64,000 nt of DNA. Source: a virus. Its lineage: Duplodnaviria > Caudoviricetes. Below, one piece after another: positions 24,989 to 33,872 of this stretch (position 1 is its first letter; each line of letters begins with the position of its first letter). The notes below the pieces were generated by a model, which saw nothing but the letters and a program-made list of their open reading frames with translations, had not been told where the DNA came from and searched no databases. The stretch is from IMG/VR virus record IMGVR_UViG_3300042881_004206. One strand, written 5' to 3'. A program made the position numbers and the translations under genes.

Positions 24989-25009
24989 AAAATACCTATA
25001 TAATATACT

Positions 25010-25044
25010 AAAACCCCTAGTACCGAAAGGTCTAGGGGTTTTTT
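25010..25044 (+). terminator. Intrinsic (possibly bidirectional) terminator
   Basis: AAAA-CCCCTAG...CTAGGGG-TTTTTT with GAAA tetraloop. Confidence 0.85.
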
Positions 25045-25065
25045 GTTGTATTTTTACAACACCAG

Positions 25066-25094
25066 TTGACAACACACAAAACCCGTTGTATACT
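25066..25094 (+). promoter_or_regulatory. Sigma70 promoter of tRNA array
   Basis: TTGACA-17 nt-TATACT with TG extension. Confidence 0.75.
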
Positions 25095-25128
25095 GCGTTT
25101 TGTTCTTTAAAAATTTGTAGAGTCTTTT

Positions 25129-25218
25129 GGAAACGTGTCCGAGCGGTTTATGGAACTGGTCTTGAAAACCAGCGTGTCAGAAATGGCACCGTGAGTTCGA
25201 ATCTCACCGTTTCCGCCA
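25129..25218 (+). tRNA. tRNA-Ser(UGA)
   Basis: Cloverleaf; CTGGT-CT TGA AA-ACCAG; long V arm; CCA end. Confidence 0.93.
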
Positions 25219-25223
25219 TTAAA

Positions 25224-25315
25224 GGTGAGTTGGCTGAGTGGTCGAAAGCAGCAGTTTGCTAAACTGTCCTCCTCTTTAAACGGGAGCATAGGTTCGAATC
25301 CTATACTCACCGCCA
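25224..25315 (+). tRNA. tRNA-Ser(GCU)
   Basis: GCAGT-TT GCT AA-ACTGT; long V arm; CCA. Confidence 0.93.
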
Positions 25316-25322
25316 AATCATC

Positions 25323-25412
25323 CCCGCCATAGCTCATGGAGAGCAGGAGCGCTTATAACGCTTTCGTCCAGATAAGACCCAGGATGTGGTTCGATTCCAC
25401 ATGGCGGGACCA
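25323..25412 (+). tRNA. Atypical tRNA with UAU anticodon (Ile) and long variable region
   Basis: Acceptor CCCGCCA/TGGCGGG; GAGCG-CT TAT AA-CGCTT; 21-nt V region; TTCGATT T-loop; ACCA. Confidence 0.75.
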
Positions 25413-25418
25413 AACAAA

Positions 25419-25496
25419 GGGCCGGTAGCTCATGCTGGTTAGAGCAGTGGACTCATAATCCATTGGTGGTCAGTTCGACTCTGACCCGGCCTACCA
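25419..25496 (+). tRNA. tRNA-CAU (Ile2-like or Met)
   Basis: GTGGA-CT CAT AA-TCCAT; C4:G69 and C5:G68 pairs as in lysidine-modified Ile2 tRNAs. Confidence 0.85.
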
Positions 25497-25502
25497 AATT
25501 TT

Positions 25503-25578
25503 GTATGCGTGACCCGAACGGTTAGGGAGCGGATTGCAAATCCGTTTTATGCAGGTTCGATTCCTGTCGCATACTCCA
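25503..25578 (+). tRNA. tRNA-Cys(GCA)
   Basis: GCGGA-TT GCA AA-TCCGT; U73; CCA. Confidence 0.92.
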
Positions 25579-25581
25579 ATT

Positions 25582-25657
25582 GCTCGGTTCGTCTATCGGT
25601 TTAGGACGCTAGCCTTTCACGCTGGAAAGACGGGTTCGATTCCCGTACCGAGTGCCA
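25582..25657 (+). tRNA. tRNA-Glu(UUC)
   Basis: CT TTC AC loop; cloverleaf; CCA. Confidence 0.92.
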
Positions 25658-25659
25658 TT

Positions 25660-25773
25660 TGTTTTGCTGATTGTAAGCCATGGGCTTGATCATGCCCGAG
25701 TAACTGTGTACATAATTGCGGTAATTCTAGACTATCCCGCATGAGCACAGCAAATAGTGCAGTCAGCAAAACA
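25660..25773 (+). ncRNA. Unassigned structured RNA in tRNA array
   Basis: Closed by perfect 11-bp TGTTTTGCTGA/TCAGCAAAACA helix; internal stems; no tRNA signature. Confidence 0.65.
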
Positions 25774-25776
25774 AAT

Positions 25777-25852
25777 GGGACGTTAGCTCAGTTGGTAGAG
25801 CAGTAGACTTTTAATCTATTGGTCGTGGGTTCGAACCCCGCACGTCCTACCA
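25777..25852 (+). tRNA. tRNA-Lys(UUU)
   Basis: GTAGA-CT TTT AA-TCTAT; CCA. Confidence 0.94.
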
Positions 25853-25857
25853 AATAA

Positions 25858-25942
25858 GGAGAACGAGAAGCATTGGTGACTTCAGCAGACTGTAAATCTG
25901 TCGCCTCAGGCATACGGGGTTCGAATCCCTGGTTCTCCACCA
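25858..25942 (+). tRNA. tRNA-Tyr(GUA)
   Basis: GCAGA-CT GTA AA-TCTGT; long V arm; CCA. Confidence 0.92.
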
Positions 25943-25978
25943 TGGCCTCATTGAGGCCGCCATATATAATGGTTCAAT

Positions 25979-26053
25979 TCCCTAGTAGCTCAGCGGTAGA
26001 GCAGCAGACTGTTAATCTGTTGGTCCGTGGTTCGATCCCACGCTGGGGAGCCA
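25979..26053 (+). tRNA. tRNA-Asn(GUU)
   Basis: GCAGA-CT GTT AA-TCTGT; G73; CCA. Confidence 0.94.
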
Positions 26054-26060
26054 GTTTTTT

Positions 26061-26138
26061 CGGGGTGTAGCACAGCCTGGTTAGTGCGCCTGCTTTGGGA
26101 GCAGGAGGTCGTGAGTTCGAATCCCACCACCCCGACCA
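26061..26138 (+). tRNA. tRNA-Pro(UGG)
   Basis: CCTGC-TT TGG GA-GCAGG; CCA. Confidence 0.94.
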
Positions 26139-26147
26139 TATTAAAAA

Positions 26148-26221
26148 GCCCCTGTAGCATGAAGGTCGTGCAGTTGCCTTGTAAGCATCAGGTCCGTGTT
26201 CGATTCACGGTGGGGGCACCA
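26148..26221 (+). tRNA. tRNA-Thr(UGU)
   Basis: CT TGT AA loop; cloverleaf; CCA. Confidence 0.9.
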
Positions 26222-26227
26222 GACTTT

Positions 26228-26302
26228 GGGCTGCTAGTGATAATGGGAGCACGCCGCCTTTGCACGGCGGAGGTTGGAGTTCGATCCTCCAGCGGTCCAC
26301 CA
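26228..26302 (+). tRNA. tRNA-Ala(UGC)
   Basis: CCGCC-TT TGC AC-GGCGG; G3:U70 present; CCA. Confidence 0.93.
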
Positions 26303-26306
26303 AGAA

Positions 26307-26495
26307 CGTGCCGTTTCGTCAACGGCTAGTCTGACCCGGACGATGAGAAGGTAGATGACGTCTACAGGGTGGTTCTGGTCCTACCGAACCAGCGCTGGCA
26401 ATGCGAGAACGGGACCTGTTGGGAAGCGGGTGGAAGGTGCAAGTGATGGCCTGCAGGCTTGATGCACTATAATTACCGCCAGGGTCCGTCAGAGC
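26307..26495 (+). ncRNA. ~190-nt multi-stem structured RNA (candidate manA-RNA-like motif)
   Basis: GC-rich non-coding stretch between tRNAs with at least six stems and long-range TCTGAC/GTCAGA pairing; family assignment is tentative. Confidence 0.65.
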
Positions 26496-26499
26496 ATAT

Positions 26500-26575
26500 G
26501 GTGATATAGCTCAACTGGTAGAGCACCTCCTTCATACGGAGACGGTTGTAGGCTCGGATCCTACTATCACCACCA
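26500..26575 (+). tRNA. tRNA-Met(CAU), elongator type
   Basis: TT CAT AC loop; paired G1:C72; non-canonical T-loop CTCGGAT; CCA. Confidence 0.85.
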
Positions 26576-26583
26576 AATTTCAC

Positions 26584-26658
26584 ACCGACATAGCTCAGCG
26601 GTAGAGCAGCGTCTTGATAAGGCGTTGGTCGGTGGTTCAATCCCACCTGTCGGTACCA
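26584..26658 (+). tRNA. tRNA-Ile(GAU)
   Basis: GCGTC-TT GAT AA-GGCGT; CCA. Confidence 0.93.
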
Positions 26659-26682
26659 TCGATTAAATATAAGGAGAATAAT

Positions 26683-26859
26683 ATGTCGGATGGAGGTAAA
26701 GGTTCTTCACCGAGACCGTATAGTGTCTCACATGAAGAATTTTCAAAAAATTGGGACAATATCTTTAAGAAAGATAAAGAACCAAAAAACGAAGAAGTAG
26801 AAGATAAATTAACTAGAAACAATGAAGAAACTCAATATATAAAGAGTATATCTCGCTAG
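26683..26859 (+). CDS. Small hypothetical protein
   Basis: AAGGAG RBS; MSDGGKGSSPRPYSVSHEEFSKNWDNIF; stop lies inside tRNA-Trp 5' end. Confidence 0.65.
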   Translation: MSDGGKGSSPRPYSVSHEEFSKNWDNIFKKDKEPKNEEVEDKLTRNNEETQYIKSISR

Positions 26860-26923
26860 TGTAACGGCAGCATACCGGTCTCCAAAACCGTTGGTCGGGG
26901 TTCGAATCCCTGGCGAGGTGCCA
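26850..26923 (+). tRNA. tRNA-Trp(CCA)
   Basis: CT CCA AA loop; acceptor ATCTCGC/GCGAGGT; GCCA. Confidence 0.9.
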
Positions 26924-26938
26924 ATAGAAAGGTTTATT

Positions 26939-27421
26939 ATGTTAAAACTCAACATTCAAGAGGTTAAGGATTTTATTCAATCACAAAGTCCGGATACTAA
27001 AATTTACCTTGGTGCAGACTCGGAAAGATTTCATATGAATGGTAAATGGTATGCTGATTACACTCTTGCTGTTGTAGTTCATATTGATGGTCGACATGGA
27101 TGTAAGATATTTGGTGAAGTTCATCGTGAGTTGGATTATGATCACAAGAAAAGCAAACCTGCTATGCGATTGATGAATGAAGTTTATAAAGTAGCAGATT
27201 TGTTTCACCAATTAATTGATGTGTTGGAAGATAGACATGTAGAAGTTCACCTGGATATTAATCCAGATGAGCACTATGGTTCTTCTTGCGTGGTGCAACA
27301 AGCAATAGGTTATATCAAAGGTACATGTGATGTTGTACCAATGGTGAAACCAAAAGCATTTGCTGCTTCATATGCAGCAGATAGACTGAAACATGTGATG
27401 GCTATGGCAAAAGTTGTTTAA
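26939..27421 (+). CDS. RNase H-like protein (YkuK/DUF458 family)
   Basis: IYLGADSE, YTLAVVVH, RLMNEV, EVHLDIN and FAASYAAD; ATG 26939 after GAAAGG. Confidence 0.75.
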   Translation: MLKLNIQEVKDFIQSQSPDTKIYLGADSERFHMNGKWYADYTLAVVVHIDGRHGCKIFGEVHRELDYDHKKSKPAMRLMNEVYKVADLFHQLIDVLEDRHVEVHLDINPDEHYGSSCVVQQAIGYIKGTCDVVPMVKPKAFAASYAADRLKHVMAMAKVV

Positions 27422-27422
27422 T

Positions 27423-27497
27423 GGTGTCTATGGTGTAGTGGAAGCATTGCTCTCTGTGAAAGAGTAGGTACGAGGTCGGTACTCGTTAGACACCCCA
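27423..27497 (+). tRNA. tRNA-His(GUG)
   Basis: 8-bp acceptor with G-1:C73; CT GTG AA loop; non-canonical T-loop GTCGGTA. Confidence 0.88.
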
Positions 27498-27512
27498 AAA
27501 TAAGGATTAATT

Positions 27513-27752
27513 ATGAAACCACTAGGTAATAATGTTATTGTGAAACGTGCAGAAAAAAATCTGACAACAGGTTCAGGTATTATTTTGCAAAGAAGTGATG
27601 AAGCCGATTATGGTGTCGTAGTGAATATTGGACCTGATGTTGTTGATGTGTCGATTTCAGACAAGGTACTGTTGGATTGGAATAAAGCACTTCAAATCGA
27701 TAAAGAAAATTATAAAATTTCAATTGATAGTATTATTGCTATCATTGAGTAA
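27513..27752 (+). CDS. Co-chaperonin GroES/gp31-like
   Basis: MKPLGNNVIVKR, TTGSGIIL and GVVVNIGPDV. Confidence 0.88.
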   Translation: MKPLGNNVIVKRAEKNLTTGSGIILQRSDEADYGVVVNIGPDVVDVSISDKVLLDWNKALQIDKENYKISIDSIIAIIE

Positions 27753-27759
27753 ATTTTAA

Positions 27760-27833
27760 GCCTCTTTAGTTTAATGGTAAAACTCCGCCCTTACAAGACG
27801 GTTACGGCAGTTCGATTCTGTCAAGAGGCACCA
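27760..27833 (+). tRNA. tRNA-Val(UAC)
   Basis: CT TAC AA loop (one C-A mismatch in stem); CCA. Confidence 0.9.
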
Positions 27834-27844
27834 GGAGAGATAAA

Positions 27845-28036
27845 ATGTACATAGAAAGCATCCAAAAACTTTTTACCATTTGGCCTGTTTATACTAAAGA
27901 AACGGTATACAAAACATTGGTGGATCCTGTGACGGATAAAAAAGTTGTTGACATTGTGACTTATTATGTGTATAATGACAAAGCAAAAATTGATACGAAT
28001 GAAAACAACAAAACAAACATTGATGTAAAAGTTTAG
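27845..28036 (+). CDS. Small hypothetical protein
   Basis: AGGAG RBS; 63 aa; stop overlaps first base of tRNA-Leu. Confidence 0.55.
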   Translation: MYIESIQKLFTIWPVYTKETVYKTLVDPVTDKKVVDIVTYYVYNDKAKIDTNENNKTNIDVKV

Positions 28037-28112
28037 CCCCGGTGACGGAATTGGTATACGTGTTGGTCTTAGAAGCCAAATTTTAGGAGTTCGACTCTCC
28101 TCTGGGGCACCA
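28036..28112 (+). tRNA. tRNA-Leu(UAG) lacking long variable arm
   Basis: TTGGT-CT TAG AA-GCCAA; V region only ATTTT; A73; CCA. Confidence 0.85.
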
Positions 28113-28118
28113 AATAAA

Positions 28119-28193
28119 CTGGCCGTAGTATAATGGAGAATACAGTTGCCTTCTAAGCAATCAATCCAGGTTCGATTCCTGGCGGCCGGACCA
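28119..28193 (+). tRNA. tRNA-Arg(UCU)
   Basis: GTTGC-CT TCT AA-GCAAT; CCA. Confidence 0.92.
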
Positions 28194-28198
28194 GATAT

Positions 28199-28283
28199 GC
28201 GACTGTGGTGAAATAGGTAGACACAAGAGACTTAAAATCTCTCGACTTCGGTCGTGCCGGTTCGATTCCGGCCAGTCGCACCA
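28199..28283 (+). tRNA. tRNA-Leu(UAA)
   Basis: AGAGA-CT TAA AA-TCTCT; V arm CGAC-TTCG-GTCG; CCA. Confidence 0.94.
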
Positions 28284-28296
28284 TATATAGTAGTAT

Positions 28297-28370
28297 GCGG
28301 GATTAGTTTATCGGTAAAACGAAACCTTGCCAAGGTTTAGTGACCAGTTCGACTCTGGTATCCCGCTCCA
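28297..28370 (+). tRNA. tRNA-Gly(GCC)
   Basis: AAACC-TT GCC AA-GGTTT; U73; CCA. Confidence 0.93.
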
Positions 28371-28388
28371 AATATACCATAATAATTC

Positions 28389-28416
28389 TTGACTCTACAA
28401 ATTTTTCTGTTATAAT
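28389..28416 (+). promoter_or_regulatory. Internal sigma70 promoter in tRNA array
   Basis: TTGACT-16 nt-TATAAT with TG extension. Confidence 0.6.
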
Positions 28417-28428
28417 TAATTCATAAAT

Positions 28429-28496
28429 GCGGTGTGTTGTAGAACAGAGTGGATGTCCAATTCACTTGCTTGGTGCAAACCCAAGACGCCGCTCCA
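28429..28496 (+). tRNA. Degenerate 68-nt tRNA-Gly(UCC)-like RNA
   Basis: Acceptor GCGGTGT/ACGCCGC plus TCCA; tiny D arm; 6-bp anticodon stem with loop TG TCC AA; T-loop TGCAAAC. Confidence 0.7.
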
Positions 28497-28500
28497 AATG

Positions 28501-28575
28501 CGCGGGATGGAGAAGTGGCAACTCGCCAGCCTCATAAGCTGGAGATCGCAGGTTCAAATCCTGCTCCCGCAACCA
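28501..28575 (+). tRNA. Initiator-type tRNA-fMet(CAU)
   Basis: C1xA72 mismatch, CGCGGG 5' end and TTCAAAT T-loop; lacks the three anticodon-stem G:C pairs. Confidence 0.85.
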
Positions 28576-29304
28576 CTAAGAATGCAATTTAAATAAACTG
28601 AGTGCTTCCGGTATTCTTGTTTTTGTGTTCTGGCTTCCCAACAATATAACAATTCGTTGACTGATTCCATTTGTCAACATCATAGCAATACATCCACCAG
28701 ATGCTGTTATGAATCCAGTTTTACTTACAATAAATTCATATTGTTGAACCAACGGATTTGTATTGTTGTAGGTTAAAAATTTATTTTTTGTTGTTTGTAT
28801 TTTTATTGATGGCATTTTACTACTTTCAACAATTTCAGGATAATCTTTTGCCATCATTACAATTTTAATCAGTTCTTCAGCTGTACTGATATTCATTATA
28901 CTTAAACCTGTTGGTTCCACGAATCTGGTCTGTTCCAGGCCATGCATACGCATTTTTAGATTCATACTATAGATACACGCAGAAGTTCCACCAGGATAGT
29001 TCTCACATAATGTTACGGCCGCGGAATTACTTGAATTCACCATTGCCAATTGTATCAATTCTTTCCTTGTCAACTTACCTATTTTTTCATTTAGGTCTTG
29101 TTGTGCATCTAAAACAACCATCGATGTGACCAATTTTGTAATACTGGCAATCGACCTCACATCAGTTGTATTTTTACCTTCAATTATTTTGCCATTTTCG
29201 TCTGACACAATCCAGGCTTTTGCGGTAATAGGCTGTGTTGCGTTAACTGGTTCAGTATAAAATGCGGCGAAAACCAACAATAAAGAAATAATTTTGTATA
29301 GCAA
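28576..29304 (-). CDS. Serine D-Ala-D-Ala carboxy/endopeptidase (peptidase S11, PBP5/PBP7-like), exported
   Basis: Signal peptide; SITK (SxxK), SSN (SxN) and KTG motifs. Confidence 0.9.
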   Translation of the reverse strand: MLYKIISLLLVFAAFYTEPVNATQPITAKAWIVSDENGKIIEGKNTTDVRSIASITKLVTSMVVLDAQQDLNEKIGKLTRKELIQLAMVNSSNSAAVTLCENYPGGTSACIYSMNLKMRMHGLEQTRFVEPTGLSIMNISTAEELIKIVMMAKDYPEIVESSKMPSIKIQTTKNKFLTYNNTNPLVQQYEFIVSKTGFITASGGCIAMMLTNGISQRIVILLGSQNTKTRIPEALSLFKLHS

Positions 29305-29523: not shown

Positions 29524-30021
29524 TTATCTCCCGCAACTTCCTGTATTATTACAATATTGGATGAGTTCGTAACCACCCCAAAAAAGTCCAACAAGAAATA
29601 AAAGAATTATAGTTATAGAAATAGACATTTCTATTGCTTCTAAAATTTGTCTTTTTCTTTTGGCTGCAAATTCTTTTGCCCTTCTAGCTTCATGTGCAGC
29701 TTCTATGTCCATTGCTGCAGCTCTTGCTTTTATTTTATTCCAAACATCAATTTTTCCAGCTTGCATAAAAAGAAGTTGCAATTCATTTTCAAATTGTTTA
29801 GCTTGATCTAAGGCCATTTCAATTTGAATGGCTGCACCCATACTGGAACTAGTCCCACTTCTCTTAGCTTCTACTGCGGCTTTTGTTGCGGTGCTTTTGG
29901 CATCAAAATATTTACCCAAAACTGGCCCTAACGATGAAACATCGTCTACCGTTTTTGATATTTTTTTGACCAGCGCTACTGCCGACTGAATGCCGGCTAA
30001 TGCTGTAATTGGATCAATCAT
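29524..30021 (-). CDS. Membrane protein, unknown function
   Basis: Helical N-terminus MIDPITALAG; C-terminal TM ISITIILLFLVGLFWGGY. Confidence 0.7.
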   Translation of the reverse strand: MIDPITALAGIQSAVALVKKISKTVDDVSSLGPVLGKYFDAKSTATKAAVEAKRSGTSSSMGAAIQIEMALDQAKQFENELQLLFMQAGKIDVWNKIKARAAAMDIEAAHEARRAKEFAAKRKRQILEAIEMSISITIILLFLVGLFWGGYELIQYCNNTGSCGR

Positions 30022-30638
30022 TTGTTTGCCAATGGATTATCCATCGCCTTTTGAATCTTACTGTCAACATCTTTCTTCAATGTTTCAACTTCTCTGTTGA
30101 TTTCACGACGAGCTGCGGTAAATTCACTATTGATTTCTTTGCGTGTTTGTTCCATATCCCTACGGATATTGTTTGCTTCTGTTCTAGCCTTCTCCAAATC
30201 CTCACGAACAGCCTTACGCATTTCACGCATTTCAGATTCGGTTTCTCTTTGAGCTTGTTTAACTGAGCGCTCAACTTGTTCAGTAACAGATTCATTTCTA
30301 CGAATATCACTCTTTAAATCATTTTTAATATCTCTAGTGTAATCACTGGTCTTTTGACTGTTTTCTTCAATAACAGCAAGTCGTTTGTCGAAATCCGACA
30401 AATCTGGTGAAACATATTCGGCAATTTTCTTTTTCATTCCCATATAATCTTTGTAGGCTTCAAAAACACCATAAAGACCACCCAATAAAGATGAGACAAG
30501 AGTAAATGCAATCATAAGTTTTGCCGGTGTAAATTCGTAACCACCAACACTGATGACAGTATCTTTGCTGGCATATTTTTTGACAGCAGCTTCCGCTTCA
30601 TCAATTTTTTTGTTTACGTCTTTAATTTCTTCTCCCAT
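30018..30638 (-). CDS. Single-TM coiled-coil protein
   Basis: TM LMIAFTLVSSLLGGLYGVF followed by ~130-aa heptad-rich coiled coil. Confidence 0.72.
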   Translation of the reverse strand: MGEEIKDVNKKIDEAEAAVKKYASKDTVISVGGYEFTPAKLMIAFTLVSSLLGGLYGVFEAYKDYMGMKKKIAEYVSPDLSDFDKRLAVIEENSQKTSDYTRDIKNDLKSDIRRNESVTEQVERSVKQAQRETESEMREMRKAVREDLEKARTEANNIRRDMEQTRKEINSEFTAARREINREVETLKKDVDSKIQKAMDNPLANK

Positions 30639-30639
30639 T

Positions 30640-32430
30640 TTAATTCCTTTTATATTGTTGGTTGACCATTTCTTGATGTAATCTATCCGAACTCATTTGT
30701 CTTAATGCTCGAACATTGTCAACATTTTTCTGTCCTTTATAAATTTCTTTCGGTGCATAAAAAGCCGCATCTGCAATGACAAGATTCAAATACTGATTAT
30801 AACCAACAGGTGTTGTTGCCATTCTAGAAATGTTGACACCACCAGCAATTTCATTATCAGACACATTTGTGTTTACGCTTGTTTTTGGTTGTACAGATGT
30901 TGTTGTTTGTAAGTCAACACCGCGACCTTCTATTATTTGATTAATCGGATTTGTTCTATCGGTCAAAAATCTTTGAGATTCAGACATAGACATTTCGAAA
31001 GATGAAGTAGTTGATTGTTGATTTGTTGAAAACGAAGTTTGAGAAACTTGTGTTGTTTCGGTTGATATTGGAACAAAATTTTGTGTAGTTGCATTTTGTA
31101 ACTGTTGTTGTGGTGGCAATAACGAATATATTATTTGTGTTTGTGCATTTTGAGTTTGTTCTTGGAACAAATTTGTTGTAACCGTGGATTGTACAATCGA
31201 ATTATCTGGAGAAACACTATTTGTTGAACCAAAACGATTTGTATCATTTGCTCTTGTGGTAGAAGTTTGTATGTTAGGCTGAGTAAATGTTGAAACAGAA
31301 GAAGATTGTGTAGTTTGTATTTGATTACTTGACTGATCACTTCTTTGTGCAACTGGACTAATTCTTAAAGAAGAACCAATAAGACTTTGACTACTTGCTA
31401 AACTTGAAGATTGAGCAATATTTACCGCTTCTTGCTGCGCTTGCTGTGCAGTTTGTTCGGCAGCAGCAACAGCATTCTGTGCAGCCTGCATTGCAATAGA
31501 TTGTTCTCTTTGTTGATTTCTAGCAACAACACTCAAACCAATTGAAACGCCATTAGAATTAACAGTTGTTTCTTTATTATTTACAGTTGATGTTAATGTT
31601 ACAGATGGTGTAGCGACTGTAGTTAAGCTCGATTCGGTTACCGGAGATTGTGTTACTGTGGTCGTTGGAGCCTGAGGCATTGTACTTGTGGTGTTTGTGT
31701 TTGTTACAATCTCTGTCGTACTTGTTGGCAAAGGCGGCGTCAGCTTTGCTAGAGCATCAGCAAAACCAGGACAAGTTGGACTATACAATGGATTGTTGAA
31801 ACACGGATCAACCGAATACTTTAAACTGAAACTCACATTGTAAACCTCAGGTCCATAAGGCCCTGCCCAAAAATTATTGTCTCGGCCAACAAAACCATAT
31901 TGCACACTTCCTAAATCTTTTGTAGCAAATGGTGTTGTGAAGTTTTCCGAAAAATTAAAATTGGTCCAATCAAACTTATATGTTAAATCATAGTTTCGAT
32001 TGAAAACAGTTGATCCTTTTGAATCGTAAAAACTCACATAAGCGTTAAGATAGTCAATTCGACCATCGTCCCAACCATTACCGTTTTTCGCTGTGAAACT
32101 AAAATTATAACCATTTACACGCAATCCTGTTCCTGAATTTGGAAGAAGACTGGATATAAGTTGCATCTGATATAAATTTGTAGTACCATATGAAAAATTT
32201 ATATTATTGCCTGGTCGGACAATAGCATTTGGACCACAATATCCGGGATCACCCGAAGCCCAACAAGTCAAACTATCCTGATAAACACCATTGACCCATG
32301 GTGTTGTGTTTGTACCAGAAACAGTCGGTTGCACCACATTTCCTGTGGTGTAAACTTGAGTTGGATCAAGTGTTTGAGCGGTTGCAATTGATGATAAAAA
32401 AACCATCAAAGCAAAAAAGAGATTTTTCAT
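30640..32430 (-). CDS. Exported protein with beta-rich N-domain, Cys motif and Thr/Ser/Gln-rich linker
   Basis: Signal MKNLFFALMVFLSSIATA; DPCFNNPLYSPTCPGF; long low-complexity region. Confidence 0.75.
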   Translation of the reverse strand: MKNLFFALMVFLSSIATAQTLDPTQVYTTGNVVQPTVSGTNTTPWVNGVYQDSLTCWASGDPGYCGPNAIVRPGNNINFSYGTTNLYQMQLISSLLPNSGTGLRVNGYNFSFTAKNGNGWDDGRIDYLNAYVSFYDSKGSTVFNRNYDLTYKFDWTNFNFSENFTTPFATKDLGSVQYGFVGRDNNFWAGPYGPEVYNVSFSLKYSVDPCFNNPLYSPTCPGFADALAKLTPPLPTSTTEIVTNTNTTSTMPQAPTTTVTQSPVTESSLTTVATPSVTLTSTVNNKETTVNSNGVSIGLSVVARNQQREQSIAMQAAQNAVAAAEQTAQQAQQEAVNIAQSSSLASSQSLIGSSLRISPVAQRSDQSSNQIQTTQSSSVSTFTQPNIQTSTTRANDTNRFGSTNSVSPDNSIVQSTVTTNLFQEQTQNAQTQIIYSLLPPQQQLQNATTQNFVPISTETTQVSQTSFSTNQQSTTSSFEMSMSESQRFLTDRTNPINQIIEGRGVDLQTTTSVQPKTSVNTNVSDNEIAGGVNISRMATTPVGYNQYLNLVIADAAFYAPKEIYKGQKNVDNVRALRQMSSDRLHQEMVNQQYKRN

Positions 32431-33689
32431 TCTCTTATAGCTTTAGGAATTTTGTCCGGATTTGCAGCCCAAGCGACTTTAGCTTGTTCACCAATCAAAC
32501 CTTCATATGGGCAAGGTGTACCGGCTGCCATCATGGCATCAAATACTCTACGATCCTGACACATCGTGGCAACTGCGGCAACTTTCATACCCATGTCAAA
32601 TAGTGTTTTGGAAAGTTTTAATCTTTCGCAATTTTGGTCACGCATTGTACCACCAAAACTTAAACCAAAAACTTGAGTTTGTGTAGCACCAGAAACACCA
32701 GTCACGCAAAGGTCTGAGCCCATACTCATCATTGCAGGTGCGATTGCTGTTGGTGGAGGTTGAACAACTTTTTGTGTGACGGTACTTTCATTGATATTGC
32801 GATTGGTCATTTCACCTGACTGAATGTTTTGATTAACATTTGTTGCAGTTGATGTGTTATTATTTTGGTTTACATTTGTACTTGTTGTTTGATTTACATT
32901 ATTATTGTTATAAGTCATTGTTCCAGAATTGATATTCTGATTGACATTTGTACTTTGACTATTGTTTACATTTAAATTTGTATTTCTACTTGTGCTTGTT
33001 GAAGTATTAACATTATTATTGTTATTTGTCATTGTACCAGTATTTTCATTTCTATTAATGTTGGTGCTTGTGCTGACATTATTGTTGTTATATGTCATTG
33101 TACCAGAATTAATGTTATGGTTCGTATTTGTTGAAGTGCTGGTACTTACATTGTTGTTATTGAATGTTTGTGTGCCACTATTAATATTATAATTTGTATT
33201 TGAATTTGTTGATGAGGATGTATTGGTGTTTACATTGTTGTTATTGTTTGTAACTGTTCCACTTTGTACATTATTGTTTGTGTAAGTAACAGAACCGCTC
33301 ATCACATTGTTGTTATTGTTTGTGATAGTGCCATTTGTGGTATTTTGATTGATGTTTGTAACTGTTCCACTTTGCACATTGTTATTATTGTTATTGTAAG
33401 TCACAGTACCGCTGTTCACATTATTGTTTGTGTTGACATTGGTGCTGTTGACGGTACTTGTACTGGTGGTCGTGCTTGTACTGGTACTATTATTGTTTGT
33501 GGTAACGGTACTTGTGCTATTTGAAGTGGAGTTGGTATCCACTAATGTCTTTGAATCATAACTACCTTGATTAATAGGTGTAGTTGTGCTTGTTGTTGTT
33601 CCACCGGTTGTACTCTGCGTACTTGTTGTTTGCGCAAATGCTGTACCCATAACAAAAAGTAAGGCTAAAGCCAACTTTTTGAAGTTCAT
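32427..33689 (-). CDS. Exported Asn/Thr-rich repeat protein with Cys-rich C-terminal domain
   Basis: AAGGAAA RBS before ATG 33689; signal MNFKKLALALLFVMGTAFA; repeats N(V/I)(N/Q)SGT(V/M)T(Y/N)NNNN; C-terminal DLCVTG..QNCERLK..TMCQD..TPCP. Confidence 0.8.
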   Translation of the reverse strand: MNFKKLALALLFVMGTAFAQTTSTQSTTGGTTTSTTTPINQGSYDSKTLVDTNSTSNSTSTVTTNNNSTSTSTTTSTSTVNSTNVNTNNNVNSGTVTYNNNNNNVQSGTVTNINQNTTNGTITNNNNNVMSGSVTYTNNNVQSGTVTNNNNNVNTNTSSSTNSNTNYNINSGTQTFNNNNVSTSTSTNTNHNINSGTMTYNNNNVSTSTNINRNENTGTMTNNNNNVNTSTSTSRNTNLNVNNSQSTNVNQNINSGTMTYNNNNVNQTTSTNVNQNNNTSTATNVNQNIQSGEMTNRNINESTVTQKVVQPPPTAIAPAMMSMGSDLCVTGVSGATQTQVFGLSFGGTMRDQNCERLKLSKTLFDMGMKVAAVATMCQDRRVFDAMMAAGTPCPYEGLIGEQAKVAWAANPDKIPKAIRE

Positions 33690-33747
33690 TTGATTTCCTT
33701 TTAATTTTGTTATGAAAAAAAACATTGGTAAATGTTTCAGGGACATA

Positions 33748-33795
33748 TTGCATGTCCGAACAAAATCATATATAATTGTATCACTCTTATTTATG
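33748..33795. promoter_or_regulatory. Face-to-face promoters: + strand sigma70 and - strand late-type
   Basis: TTGCAT-17-TATAAT (33748-33776, +); CATAAATA on - strand (33788-33795). Confidence 0.5.
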
Positions 33796-33872
33796 CGGGT
33801 AGACAGGTGAAGGGGCCACCAACAGCCTTCCAAGCTGAAGATCGCGGAGTTCGACTCTCCCTACCCGCTCCA
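33795..33872 (+). tRNA. tRNA-Gly(UCC) with irregular D arm
   Basis: Acceptor GCGGGTA/TACCCGC plus TCCA; CAGC-CT TCC AA-GCTG; TTCGACT T-loop. Confidence 0.8.

Follow-up and report, generated by a model that had tools for sequence, protein, structure and literature searches.

What is encoded in the gap between the tRNA-Ala and tRNA-Met genes of a T4-like phage, and how might an element that lies flush against a tRNA gene on either side act? We approached this locus in a window of 64,000 nucleotides (the whole stretch of DNA that was analysed) from IMG/VR virus record IMGVR_UViG_3300042881_004206 (Duplodnaviria; Caudoviricetes). The original prediction, made from the letters of the window alone, described a structured RNA of ~190 nt in a GC-rich island, lacking tRNA or tmRNA signatures and built of seven stems and a pseudoknot, and took it for a manA-like or new non-coding RNA released by tRNA processing. 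Part of this stands: the real RNA, the GC island and five of the stems; two stems and the pseudoknot do not. The reading that we favour, at a probability of roughly 0.6, is that of an RNA of ~200 nt that would be cut from a tRNA precursor, be stable and act in trans.

The host record is an IMG/VR virus genome of 156.6 kb, estimated to be 92% complete, which carries T4-type genes for a clamp loader, a dCMP deaminase and a GroES-like protein; among Kyanoviridae-type phages infecting Prochlorococcus, Synechococcus and Methylophilales, the clamp loaders have 61-64% identity to this one. Near-identical copies of the element's surroundings are found in lake and freshwater metagenomes from many studies. 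The tRNA array runs from 25129 to 28575 and comprises 22 genes, each of them on the + strand, and the element occupies the tRNA-Ala/tRNA-Met gap exactly, with no spare bases (ARAGORN). With 56% G+C it stands out from the 32-45% of 2-kb windows across the window, and it has one copy in the window's own genome. Neither ARAGORN nor the Rfam tRNA model finds a cloverleaf or a tRNA-like domain within 26303-26499, and ARAGORN likewise reports no tRNA or tmRNA there. A consensus scan detects a single promoter-like site ahead of the element, before the first tRNA (Table 1), and no further + strand match between that site and the element. There is no terminator-like site inside or adjoining the element, the nearest on the same strand being at 26042, 260 nt upstream. 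Further sigma-70-type promoter matches lie inside the array at 27948-27976 (12/12) and 28389-28416 (11/12, with TG); hence, the array may consist of several transcription units.

The extent of the family was established by starting from the neighbouring ORF 26891-27421, through which 80 related IMG/VR loci were collected. In 29 of these the element is detected by nhmmer, and the same 29 were re-found by a covariance model, R1, built from 22 non-redundant copies and a structure read by hand. A 19-nt pattern taken from the most conserved strand matched at least 120 further viral stretches, 109 of which R1 confirmed, bringing the family to ~140 confirmed IMG/VR phage loci (nhmmer and R1), among them contigs of phages of 260-347 kb. 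R1 itself recovers the element of the window at 193.4 bits (cmsearch, E 6e-61, model positions 1-205). The 19-nt pattern also has at least 120 matches in bacteria, against ~140 that we estimate to be expected by chance; here only the pattern itself matches by nhmmer and R1, and among the matches listed the bacterial loci L228 and L308 score 9-10 bits. A weak match at L059 (14.6 bits) is a tRNA. Alignment of 99 distinct full-length members to R1 (alignment A5) gives lengths of 176-283 nt and identities of 53-99% over matched columns.

Searches for known families were run with the 4227 models of Rfam 15, complemented by a permissive run at E<=10 on 26200-26600. At the gathering score these returned tRNAs and no match in the element, and at E<=10 they added to the tRNAs four chance-level matches (E 1.6-4.1): snoZ17, Prion_pknot, Plastid-ycf2 and mascRNA-menRNA, of which snoZ17 alone lies inside the element. 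The T-box leader model RF00230, the bacterial A/B and archaeal RNase P RNA models, the HDV-family models and the models of other self-cleavers give nothing at E<=10; moreover, the downstream neighbour is a tRNA rather than an aminoacyl-tRNA-related gene, and a long-range P4-type helix is absent from the covariation map. The GOLLD and ROOL models are likewise unmatched, these RNAs being over 500 nt in length as opposed to the 176-283 nt of the family.

Could the element nevertheless be an overlooked member of manA, the T4 rnaC/rnaD RNAs, a 5S rRNA-like RNA or a fragment of RNase P? Its size and context had suggested an analogy with manA, and short ordered words shared with 5S rRNA can be picked out by eye. 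The manA RNAs, a riboswitch candidate, lie in 5' UTRs of mannose/fructose, nucleotide, chaperone and photosynthesis genes, and the motif occurs in T4-like phages whose hosts are aquatic bacteria, its pseudoknot being drawn tentatively (PMC2864571). While the element shares the T4-like phage home and a pseudoknot with these, it lies between tRNAs or after ORFs and not in metabolic 5' UTRs, and the manA model RF01745, which was among those scanned, does not match even at E<=10; the manA-like half of the earlier proposal thus falls away. The rnaC/rnaD region of T4 (NC_000866, 68000-76000) yields at best 5.1 bits with R1 with filters off. There is no RF00001 match, and the local alignment with E. 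coli 5S rRNA scores 16-17, which equals the shuffle mean. Membership in any of these families is close to negligible in probability. The other half, a new non-coding RNA, agrees with the size of the family, its strong covariation and the absence of a matching Rfam model. Predictions from IMG/VR have yielded 8,495 candidates without names (PMC10690425), and the family may be one of them.

The fold is supported chiefly by comparison. In A5, which leans towards structure because it was fitted to R1, standard pairs fill 95.9% of the pair cells, and 37 of the 44 pairs have changed in a compensatory way, values reached by none of 500 shuffles; sliding the 3' partners by 1-3 columns lowers the pairing to only 33-51%. 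An unfitted MAFFT alignment of 22 sequences still gives 89% pairing and 31 covarying pairs, and an unsupervised mutual-information ranking places the same helices on top. The minimum free energy of the single sequence is not significant against shuffles (z -0.09 and -0.61 for the two strands), and the case rests, therefore, on sequence comparison and not on thermodynamics. The RNA is, on this comparative evidence, genuine, strongly structured and a member of a large phage family without an entry in Rfam 15. The predicted fold has eight helices, one pseudoknot that we count as proven, a second that is probable, a loop-loop contact and an optional kink-turn (Table 1).

Table 1. Features of the RNA element and its immediate setting in the window
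Feature	Position	Strand	Support or remark
Sigma-70-like promoter match TTGACA-17-TATACT, before first tRNA	25066-25094	+	11/12; consensus scan only
tRNA-Ala(UGC), encoded CCA, abuts element upstream	26228-26302	+	ARAGORN and Rfam tRNA model
Structured RNA gene, 197 nt	26303-26499	+	matches model R1 end to end
5' single-stranded leader AGAACGU	26303-26309	+	conserved (N)AACGU directly after tRNA-Ala CCA (99 members)
H1 hairpin GCCGUU/AACGGC	26310-26315 with 26321-26326	+	6/6 pairs compensatory
H1 loop GUC, contacts H3 loop	26318-26320	+	covariation
H2 hairpin, loop GACCC (26333-26337)	26329-26332 with 26338-26341	+	100% paired, 3/4 compensatory
PK1, H2 loop ACCC/GGGU	26334-26337 with 26367-26370	+	99% paired, covarying
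Purine-rich joiner GAUGAGAAG, H2 to H3	26342-26350	+	GA, GAAGU >=90% conserved (n=99)
H3 hairpin GUAGA/UCUAC	26351-26355 with 26361-26365	+	5/5 pairs compensatory
PK2 (probable), GGU with H4 loop ACC	26371-26373 with 26383-26385	+	98% paired
H4 hairpin	26375-26379 with 26388-26392	+	5/6 pairs compensatory, 92% paired
H5 hairpin CGC/GCG	26393-26395 with 26403-26405	+	100% paired; C-G to U-A in 26 members
Lone tertiary pair U-A (model U100-A107)	26402 with 26409	+	U-A in 87, C-G in 11; 100% paired
H6	26412-26417 with 26482-26487	+	100% paired, 6/6 compensatory
H7a	26420-26421 with 26480-26481	+	100% paired; C-G to U-A in 1 member (window itself)
GGAA bulge of 3' arm	26422-26425	+	splits H7a from H7b
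H7b	26426-26429 with 26476-26479	+	100% paired; C-G to U-A in 12 members
Near-invariant internal loop GUGGAAG opposite UAUAAUUA	26430-26436 opposite 26468-26475	+	borders H8
H8 C-stem	26437-26441 with 26463-26467	+	99% paired, 5/5 compensatory
H8 3-nt bulge	26442-26444	+	3 nt in 93/99 members
H8 tandem G.A/A.G	26445-26446 with 26461-26462	+	
H8 distal stem	26448-26451 with 26456-26459	+	tip variable
Single-stranded 3' tail G(U)CAGAGCAUAU, ends at tRNA-Met first base	26488-26499	+	AGAGCA >=90% conserved
tRNA-Met(CAU), abuts element downstream	26500-26575	+	ARAGORN and Rfam

The 5' domain would consist of five hairpins, knotted together by the contact between H1 and H3 and by two pseudoknots that share one GGGUGGU strand. 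Position C5 of the leader that precedes them is conserved in at least 90% of the 99 members and invariant in the 22-sequence alignment, and a possible 3-bp pairing of the leader with 26343-26345 is paired in only 86%. The H3 loop, UGAC, is U-turn-like, and its bases 26357-26359 pair with the three bases of the H1 loop: the loop-loop pair 16-57 is G-C in 50 and A-U in 26 of the 99 members, and the pair with the highest mutual information in the entire alignment is found at the H3 hairpin/H1 contact. PK1 has changed in compensatory fashion in independent events: to A-U in L145, to U-A in L136 and L124, and to GGUCC/GGACC in L008, L086 and L083. A second copy of GGGUGG (26428-26433) is unaltered in L145, L136, L124 and L086; since it does not follow the changes in PK1, the copy at 26367-26370 is settled as the partner. 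An arrangement in which the two GGGUGG copies pair alternatively with ACCGCC or with the H2 loop is contradicted by L145, L136 and L086. PK2 is graded as probable rather than proven because its bases show little variation. A structured insert of 40-70 nt lies between the GGGUGGU strand and H4 in L142, L172, L139, L149, L140, L180, L200 and L044, and other members have inserts at the tip of H8, so that expansion is tolerated at both places.

The long 3' arm is predicted to be formed by H6, H7 and H8, interrupted by the GGAA bulge and by the near-invariant internal loop, which we read as a putative UAA/GAN-type module, with a kink-turn in most members. The signature of the latter, a 3-nt bulge followed by tandem G.A/A.G, is present in 70 of the 99 members, including the window (26437-26467), and the others have a plain hairpin. 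Kink-turns occur in box C/D RNAs, U4 snRNA and several riboswitches. H8 would resemble them in its C-stem, 3-nt bulge, tandem G.A/A.G and non-canonical stem; the motif is a local module only, dispensable in 29 members.

Five of the stems first drawn for the element map onto this fold: GCCGTT/AACGGC is H1, GTAGA/TCTAC is H3 and GCGG(G)T/ACCGC is H7b, all conserved with compensatory changes, while GTGCA/TGCAC and GCC/GGC are parts of H8, where compensatory changes are also present. The stems TCTGAC/GTCAGA and GGTTC/GAACC and the pseudoknot GGTCC/GGACC are jointly paired at 48%, no better than shuffles, and the pseudoknot (26377-26381 with 26412-26416) at 21% when taken alone. The true partner of GGACC at 26412-26416 is the GGTCC at 26483-26487, within H6, and TCTGAC is half of the H2 hairpin together with its pseudoknot-forming loop.

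Conservation is by no means limited to the helices: identity reaches 97% or more in 51 of 200 columns (n=99), and many of these are unpaired, including the GA..GAAGU of the joiner, the 7-nt H5 loop UGGCAAU, a GUCGGG stretch, GUGGAAG opposite UAUAAUUA, and CAGAGCA of the tail. That about a quarter of the columns are near-invariant, many of them unpaired, points to a surface made for precise binding or for catalysis and not to a spacer. One specific form that such a surface could take is a binder of tRNA 3' ends, in which conserved UGGN motifs pair with NCCA ends, so that tRNAs of the phage or the host are held or sensed. The near-invariant UGGC of the H5 loop and the GUGGAAG strand by H8 are unpaired in the covariation model, the GGU-ACC pairing of PK2 uses the same chemistry internally, and the element resides among tRNA genes. 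These UGGN motifs resemble the T-box bulge and the L15 loop of RNase P, both of which we take to pair with tRNA NCCA ends. However, the T-box and RNase P models found nothing at E<=10, the motifs, being invariant, do not change along with the discriminator bases of the adjoining tRNAs, which vary, and GUGGAAG is equally readable as one side of a purely structural internal loop; we hold this proposal to be rather unlikely.

The genomic habit of the family was read from 83 distinct loci. In all of them, every tRNA within 3 kb is co-oriented with the element, and in most the 5' end of the element falls within 2 nt (-2 to +2) of a tRNA 3' end. At the junctions of 99 members the upstream tRNAs carry an encoded CCA, which is followed directly by (N)AACGU. 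Across the 83 loci, the upstream tRNAs are of Tyr, Ser, Asp, Asn, Arg, Pro, Ala, Gly, Met and Glu identity, and those downstream of Cys, Thr, Asn, Met, Ile, Ala and Leu identity. At about half of the loci no more than 7 nt separate the element from the next tRNA; at the others it is succeeded by an ORF or by hairpin modules of other kinds. Five of the 83 loci lack a tRNA inside the 3-kb range, and there the element begins directly behind the stop codon of a co-directional ORF; hence, processing of tRNAs cannot be the sole route of maturation.

The close fit to tRNA 3' ends raises the alternative of a self-cleaving ribozyme that acts in cis, cutting at its own 5' end and so making the 3' end of the upstream tRNA. 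A precedent is offered by theta ribozymes, HDV-like RNAs of gut phages for which this task has been proposed and whose own 5' end, the cleavage site, coincides with the 3' end of a phage tRNA; CCA is encoded in just 4.5% of the tRNAs associated with them (PMC10879173). The conservation of unpaired bases in our family is also of ribozyme grade. On the other hand, theta ribozymes have the minimal HDV fold, while the element has five serial hairpins and a 3' arm instead of a nested double pseudoknot (P1, P1.1, P2, P3, P4) that starts at the cleavage site, and no Rfam self-cleaver matched at E<=10. The element, unlike theta ribozymes, follows CCA-encoding tRNAs, at which cleavage would put a cyclic phosphate on A76, and it occurs once per genome, as a single copy per array of 22-28 tRNAs. 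Further, ~200 nt is far beyond what the task needs, and some members stand behind ORFs without a tRNA nearby. We therefore consider self-cleavage unlikely.

The varied downstream neighbours bear on another alternative, a cis control element (riboswitch-like, or a processing checkpoint) governing the transcription or maturation of the downstream tRNAs. Although the conservation is of aptamer grade and the position is fixed inside a transcription unit, there is no expression platform, and the element, whose tail leads straight on to the tRNA behind it, has no terminator-like hairpin within or beside it; the covariation contradicts a switch of pairing between the two GGGUGG copies; and what follows ranges from tRNAs of many identities to ORFs and hairpin modules. 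Such a role appears very improbable.

The favoured reading, an RNA released from the tRNA precursor to act in trans, would accommodate this habit by the following steps. The element would be transcribed within the phage's polycistronic tRNA precursor; an RNase P cut at the next tRNA (here tRNA-Met) would free its 3' end, and an endonucleolytic cut after the CCA of the upstream tRNA its 5' end; and the product, as a stable folded RNA, would act in trans during infection. We infer release by tRNA processing from the common strand, the abutting tRNAs, the one promoter-like site ahead and the RNA contigs that cover the element. These contigs come from four lake or freshwater RNA libraries and were mapped on 25000-28700; being assembled, they do not make visible the ends, strand or abundance of the RNA. 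With 0-1 mismatches, X15 contigs cover 26279-26380 and 26382-26488, and X18 contigs, from the same study, 26318-26411 and 26382-26482. In a third run, from another study, the depth is 10-16 over the element. The ORF stretches of the array at 26984-27355, 27480-27727 and 27852-27975 have a depth of 0-2.6. The X15 record 5 spans the tRNA/element junction with 24 nt of tRNA, too short to serve as a bridge. This coverage pattern is as expected of a stable RNA and unlike that of contaminating DNA, which we regard as a weak hint.

The carriers are freshwater T4-like phages (157-175 kb) and T4-related giants (331-347 kb), and each of the five near-complete carrier genomes has one copy. R1 finds no element in four near-complete related T4-like genomes, nor is there a divergent copy in the gaps of their tRNA arrays; hence, the element is dispensable for this type of phage. 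Five cultured Kyanoviridae-type genomes gave no match to R1, with a working positive control, and blastn with three members of the family as queries matched none of 50,697 phage records, so far confining the family to uncultured phages. Two of the five carriers, the giants G008 and G009 (the records of L089 and L151; 331 and 347 kb; 95-100% complete), share T4-type genes with the 157-kb phage of the window at protein identities of up to 78%.

Across nine genomes, no ORF of at least 45 codons from the window's genome occurs in all four other carriers and is absent from the four non-carriers; in this small sample, gene content speaks against a phage protein that serves as a dedicated partner. 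Two reverse-strand ORFs of a nearby envelope cassette have counterparts in carriers: 30018-30638 (-), with 68-78% identity, in all four other carriers, and 32427-33833 (-), with 56-63% identity, full-length in three carriers and partial in G006. In the giant phages both lie 120-216 kb away from the RNA. As the cassette ORFs are also found in the non-carrier G001, we read their presence as shared ancestry and not as partnership.

The lack of a co-occurring phage protein is consistent with a further alternative, in which the element is the building block of an RNA-only assembly that forms homo-oligomers through its loops, as ROOL and GOLLD do. These RNAs of phages and prophages often neighbour tRNA islands and have ornate folds backed by covariation (10.1101/2024.12.08.627333). 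The element is like them in being phage-encoded and in its tRNA-island habit, a likeness of context only and not of membership, and the covarying loop-loop contact could in principle be intermolecular. Yet an intramolecular H1-H3 contact accounts for the covariation equally well; and GOLLD and ROOL, which are shown to form nanocages, are ~3-4 times larger than the element and have no similarity to it in sequence or model. An assembly of this kind seems distinctly unlikely.

Close parallels in habit to a stable RNA of this sort are the species 1 and 2 RNAs of T4 (rnaC and rnaD), which are small stable RNAs that lie in the tRNA cluster on the tRNA strand and abut a tRNA (NC_000866). They differ from the element in being shorter (119 and 139 nt) and show no homology to it. 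We know of no comparable pseudoknotted fold for either of them. If the favoured trans-acting RNA has a target, its home among tRNA genes would lead us to guess at tRNA or the translation machinery. A further proposal is that large freshwater phages bring, along with their tRNA sets, a natural RNA that would be a ribozyme or a binder of tRNA, a new class that would act on tRNA ends or the translation apparatus with no phage protein needed; we consider it rather unlikely.

The arrays that house the element contain non-tRNA RNAs of several kinds. The 119-nt spacer between tRNA-Glu and tRNA-Lys of the window (25658-25776) recurs with 75-77% identity in the arrays of G002, G004 and G006, and is kept also in genomes without the 200-nt RNA; it is likely to be a second, separate small RNA. 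In many relatives, an additional long hairpin takes the tail AGCAUAU as its 5' strand: UGAAGCACAUU is paired with AGUGUGUUUCAA, the UAUGCU following AGUGUGUUUCAA pairs back to the tail, and the hairpin encloses a variable insert of 50-70 nt. Examples are L087:1431-1540, L091, L095, L120, L123, L139, L149, L157, L158, L187, L191 and L062, and the hairpin has the look either of a further domain that some members add or of a module in its own right. A module of ~130 nt closed by UAUAGUCAAGCA/UGCUUGACUAUA lies directly after the element in L087:1545-1680, L089, L125, L173 and L190, and recurs in tRNA arrays of giant phages. Long closing stems are seen in other array gaps as well (G001 85858-86055; G008 222031-222235). 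The array of G003 (the record of L061; 65366-74046) has a tRNA with the anticodon CUA, labelled Pyl by ARAGORN, which is possibly an amber suppressor.

To our knowledge, few natural RNAs of this size unite two pseudoknots and a loop-loop contact with eight helices and with unpaired bases that are near-invariant by the dozen. Those with such a profile have usually been recognised in the end as ribozymes, as sensors of ligands or as partners in precise binding. The reason why phages carry tRNA genes is itself debated. The family described here extends over abundant T4-like phages of fresh water and the giants related to them, and makes a compact, tractable addition to the few unexplained RNAs of phage tRNA islands, such as T4 species 1 and 2, GOLLD and ROOL; at ~200 nt, it is easily transcribed, probed and imaged.
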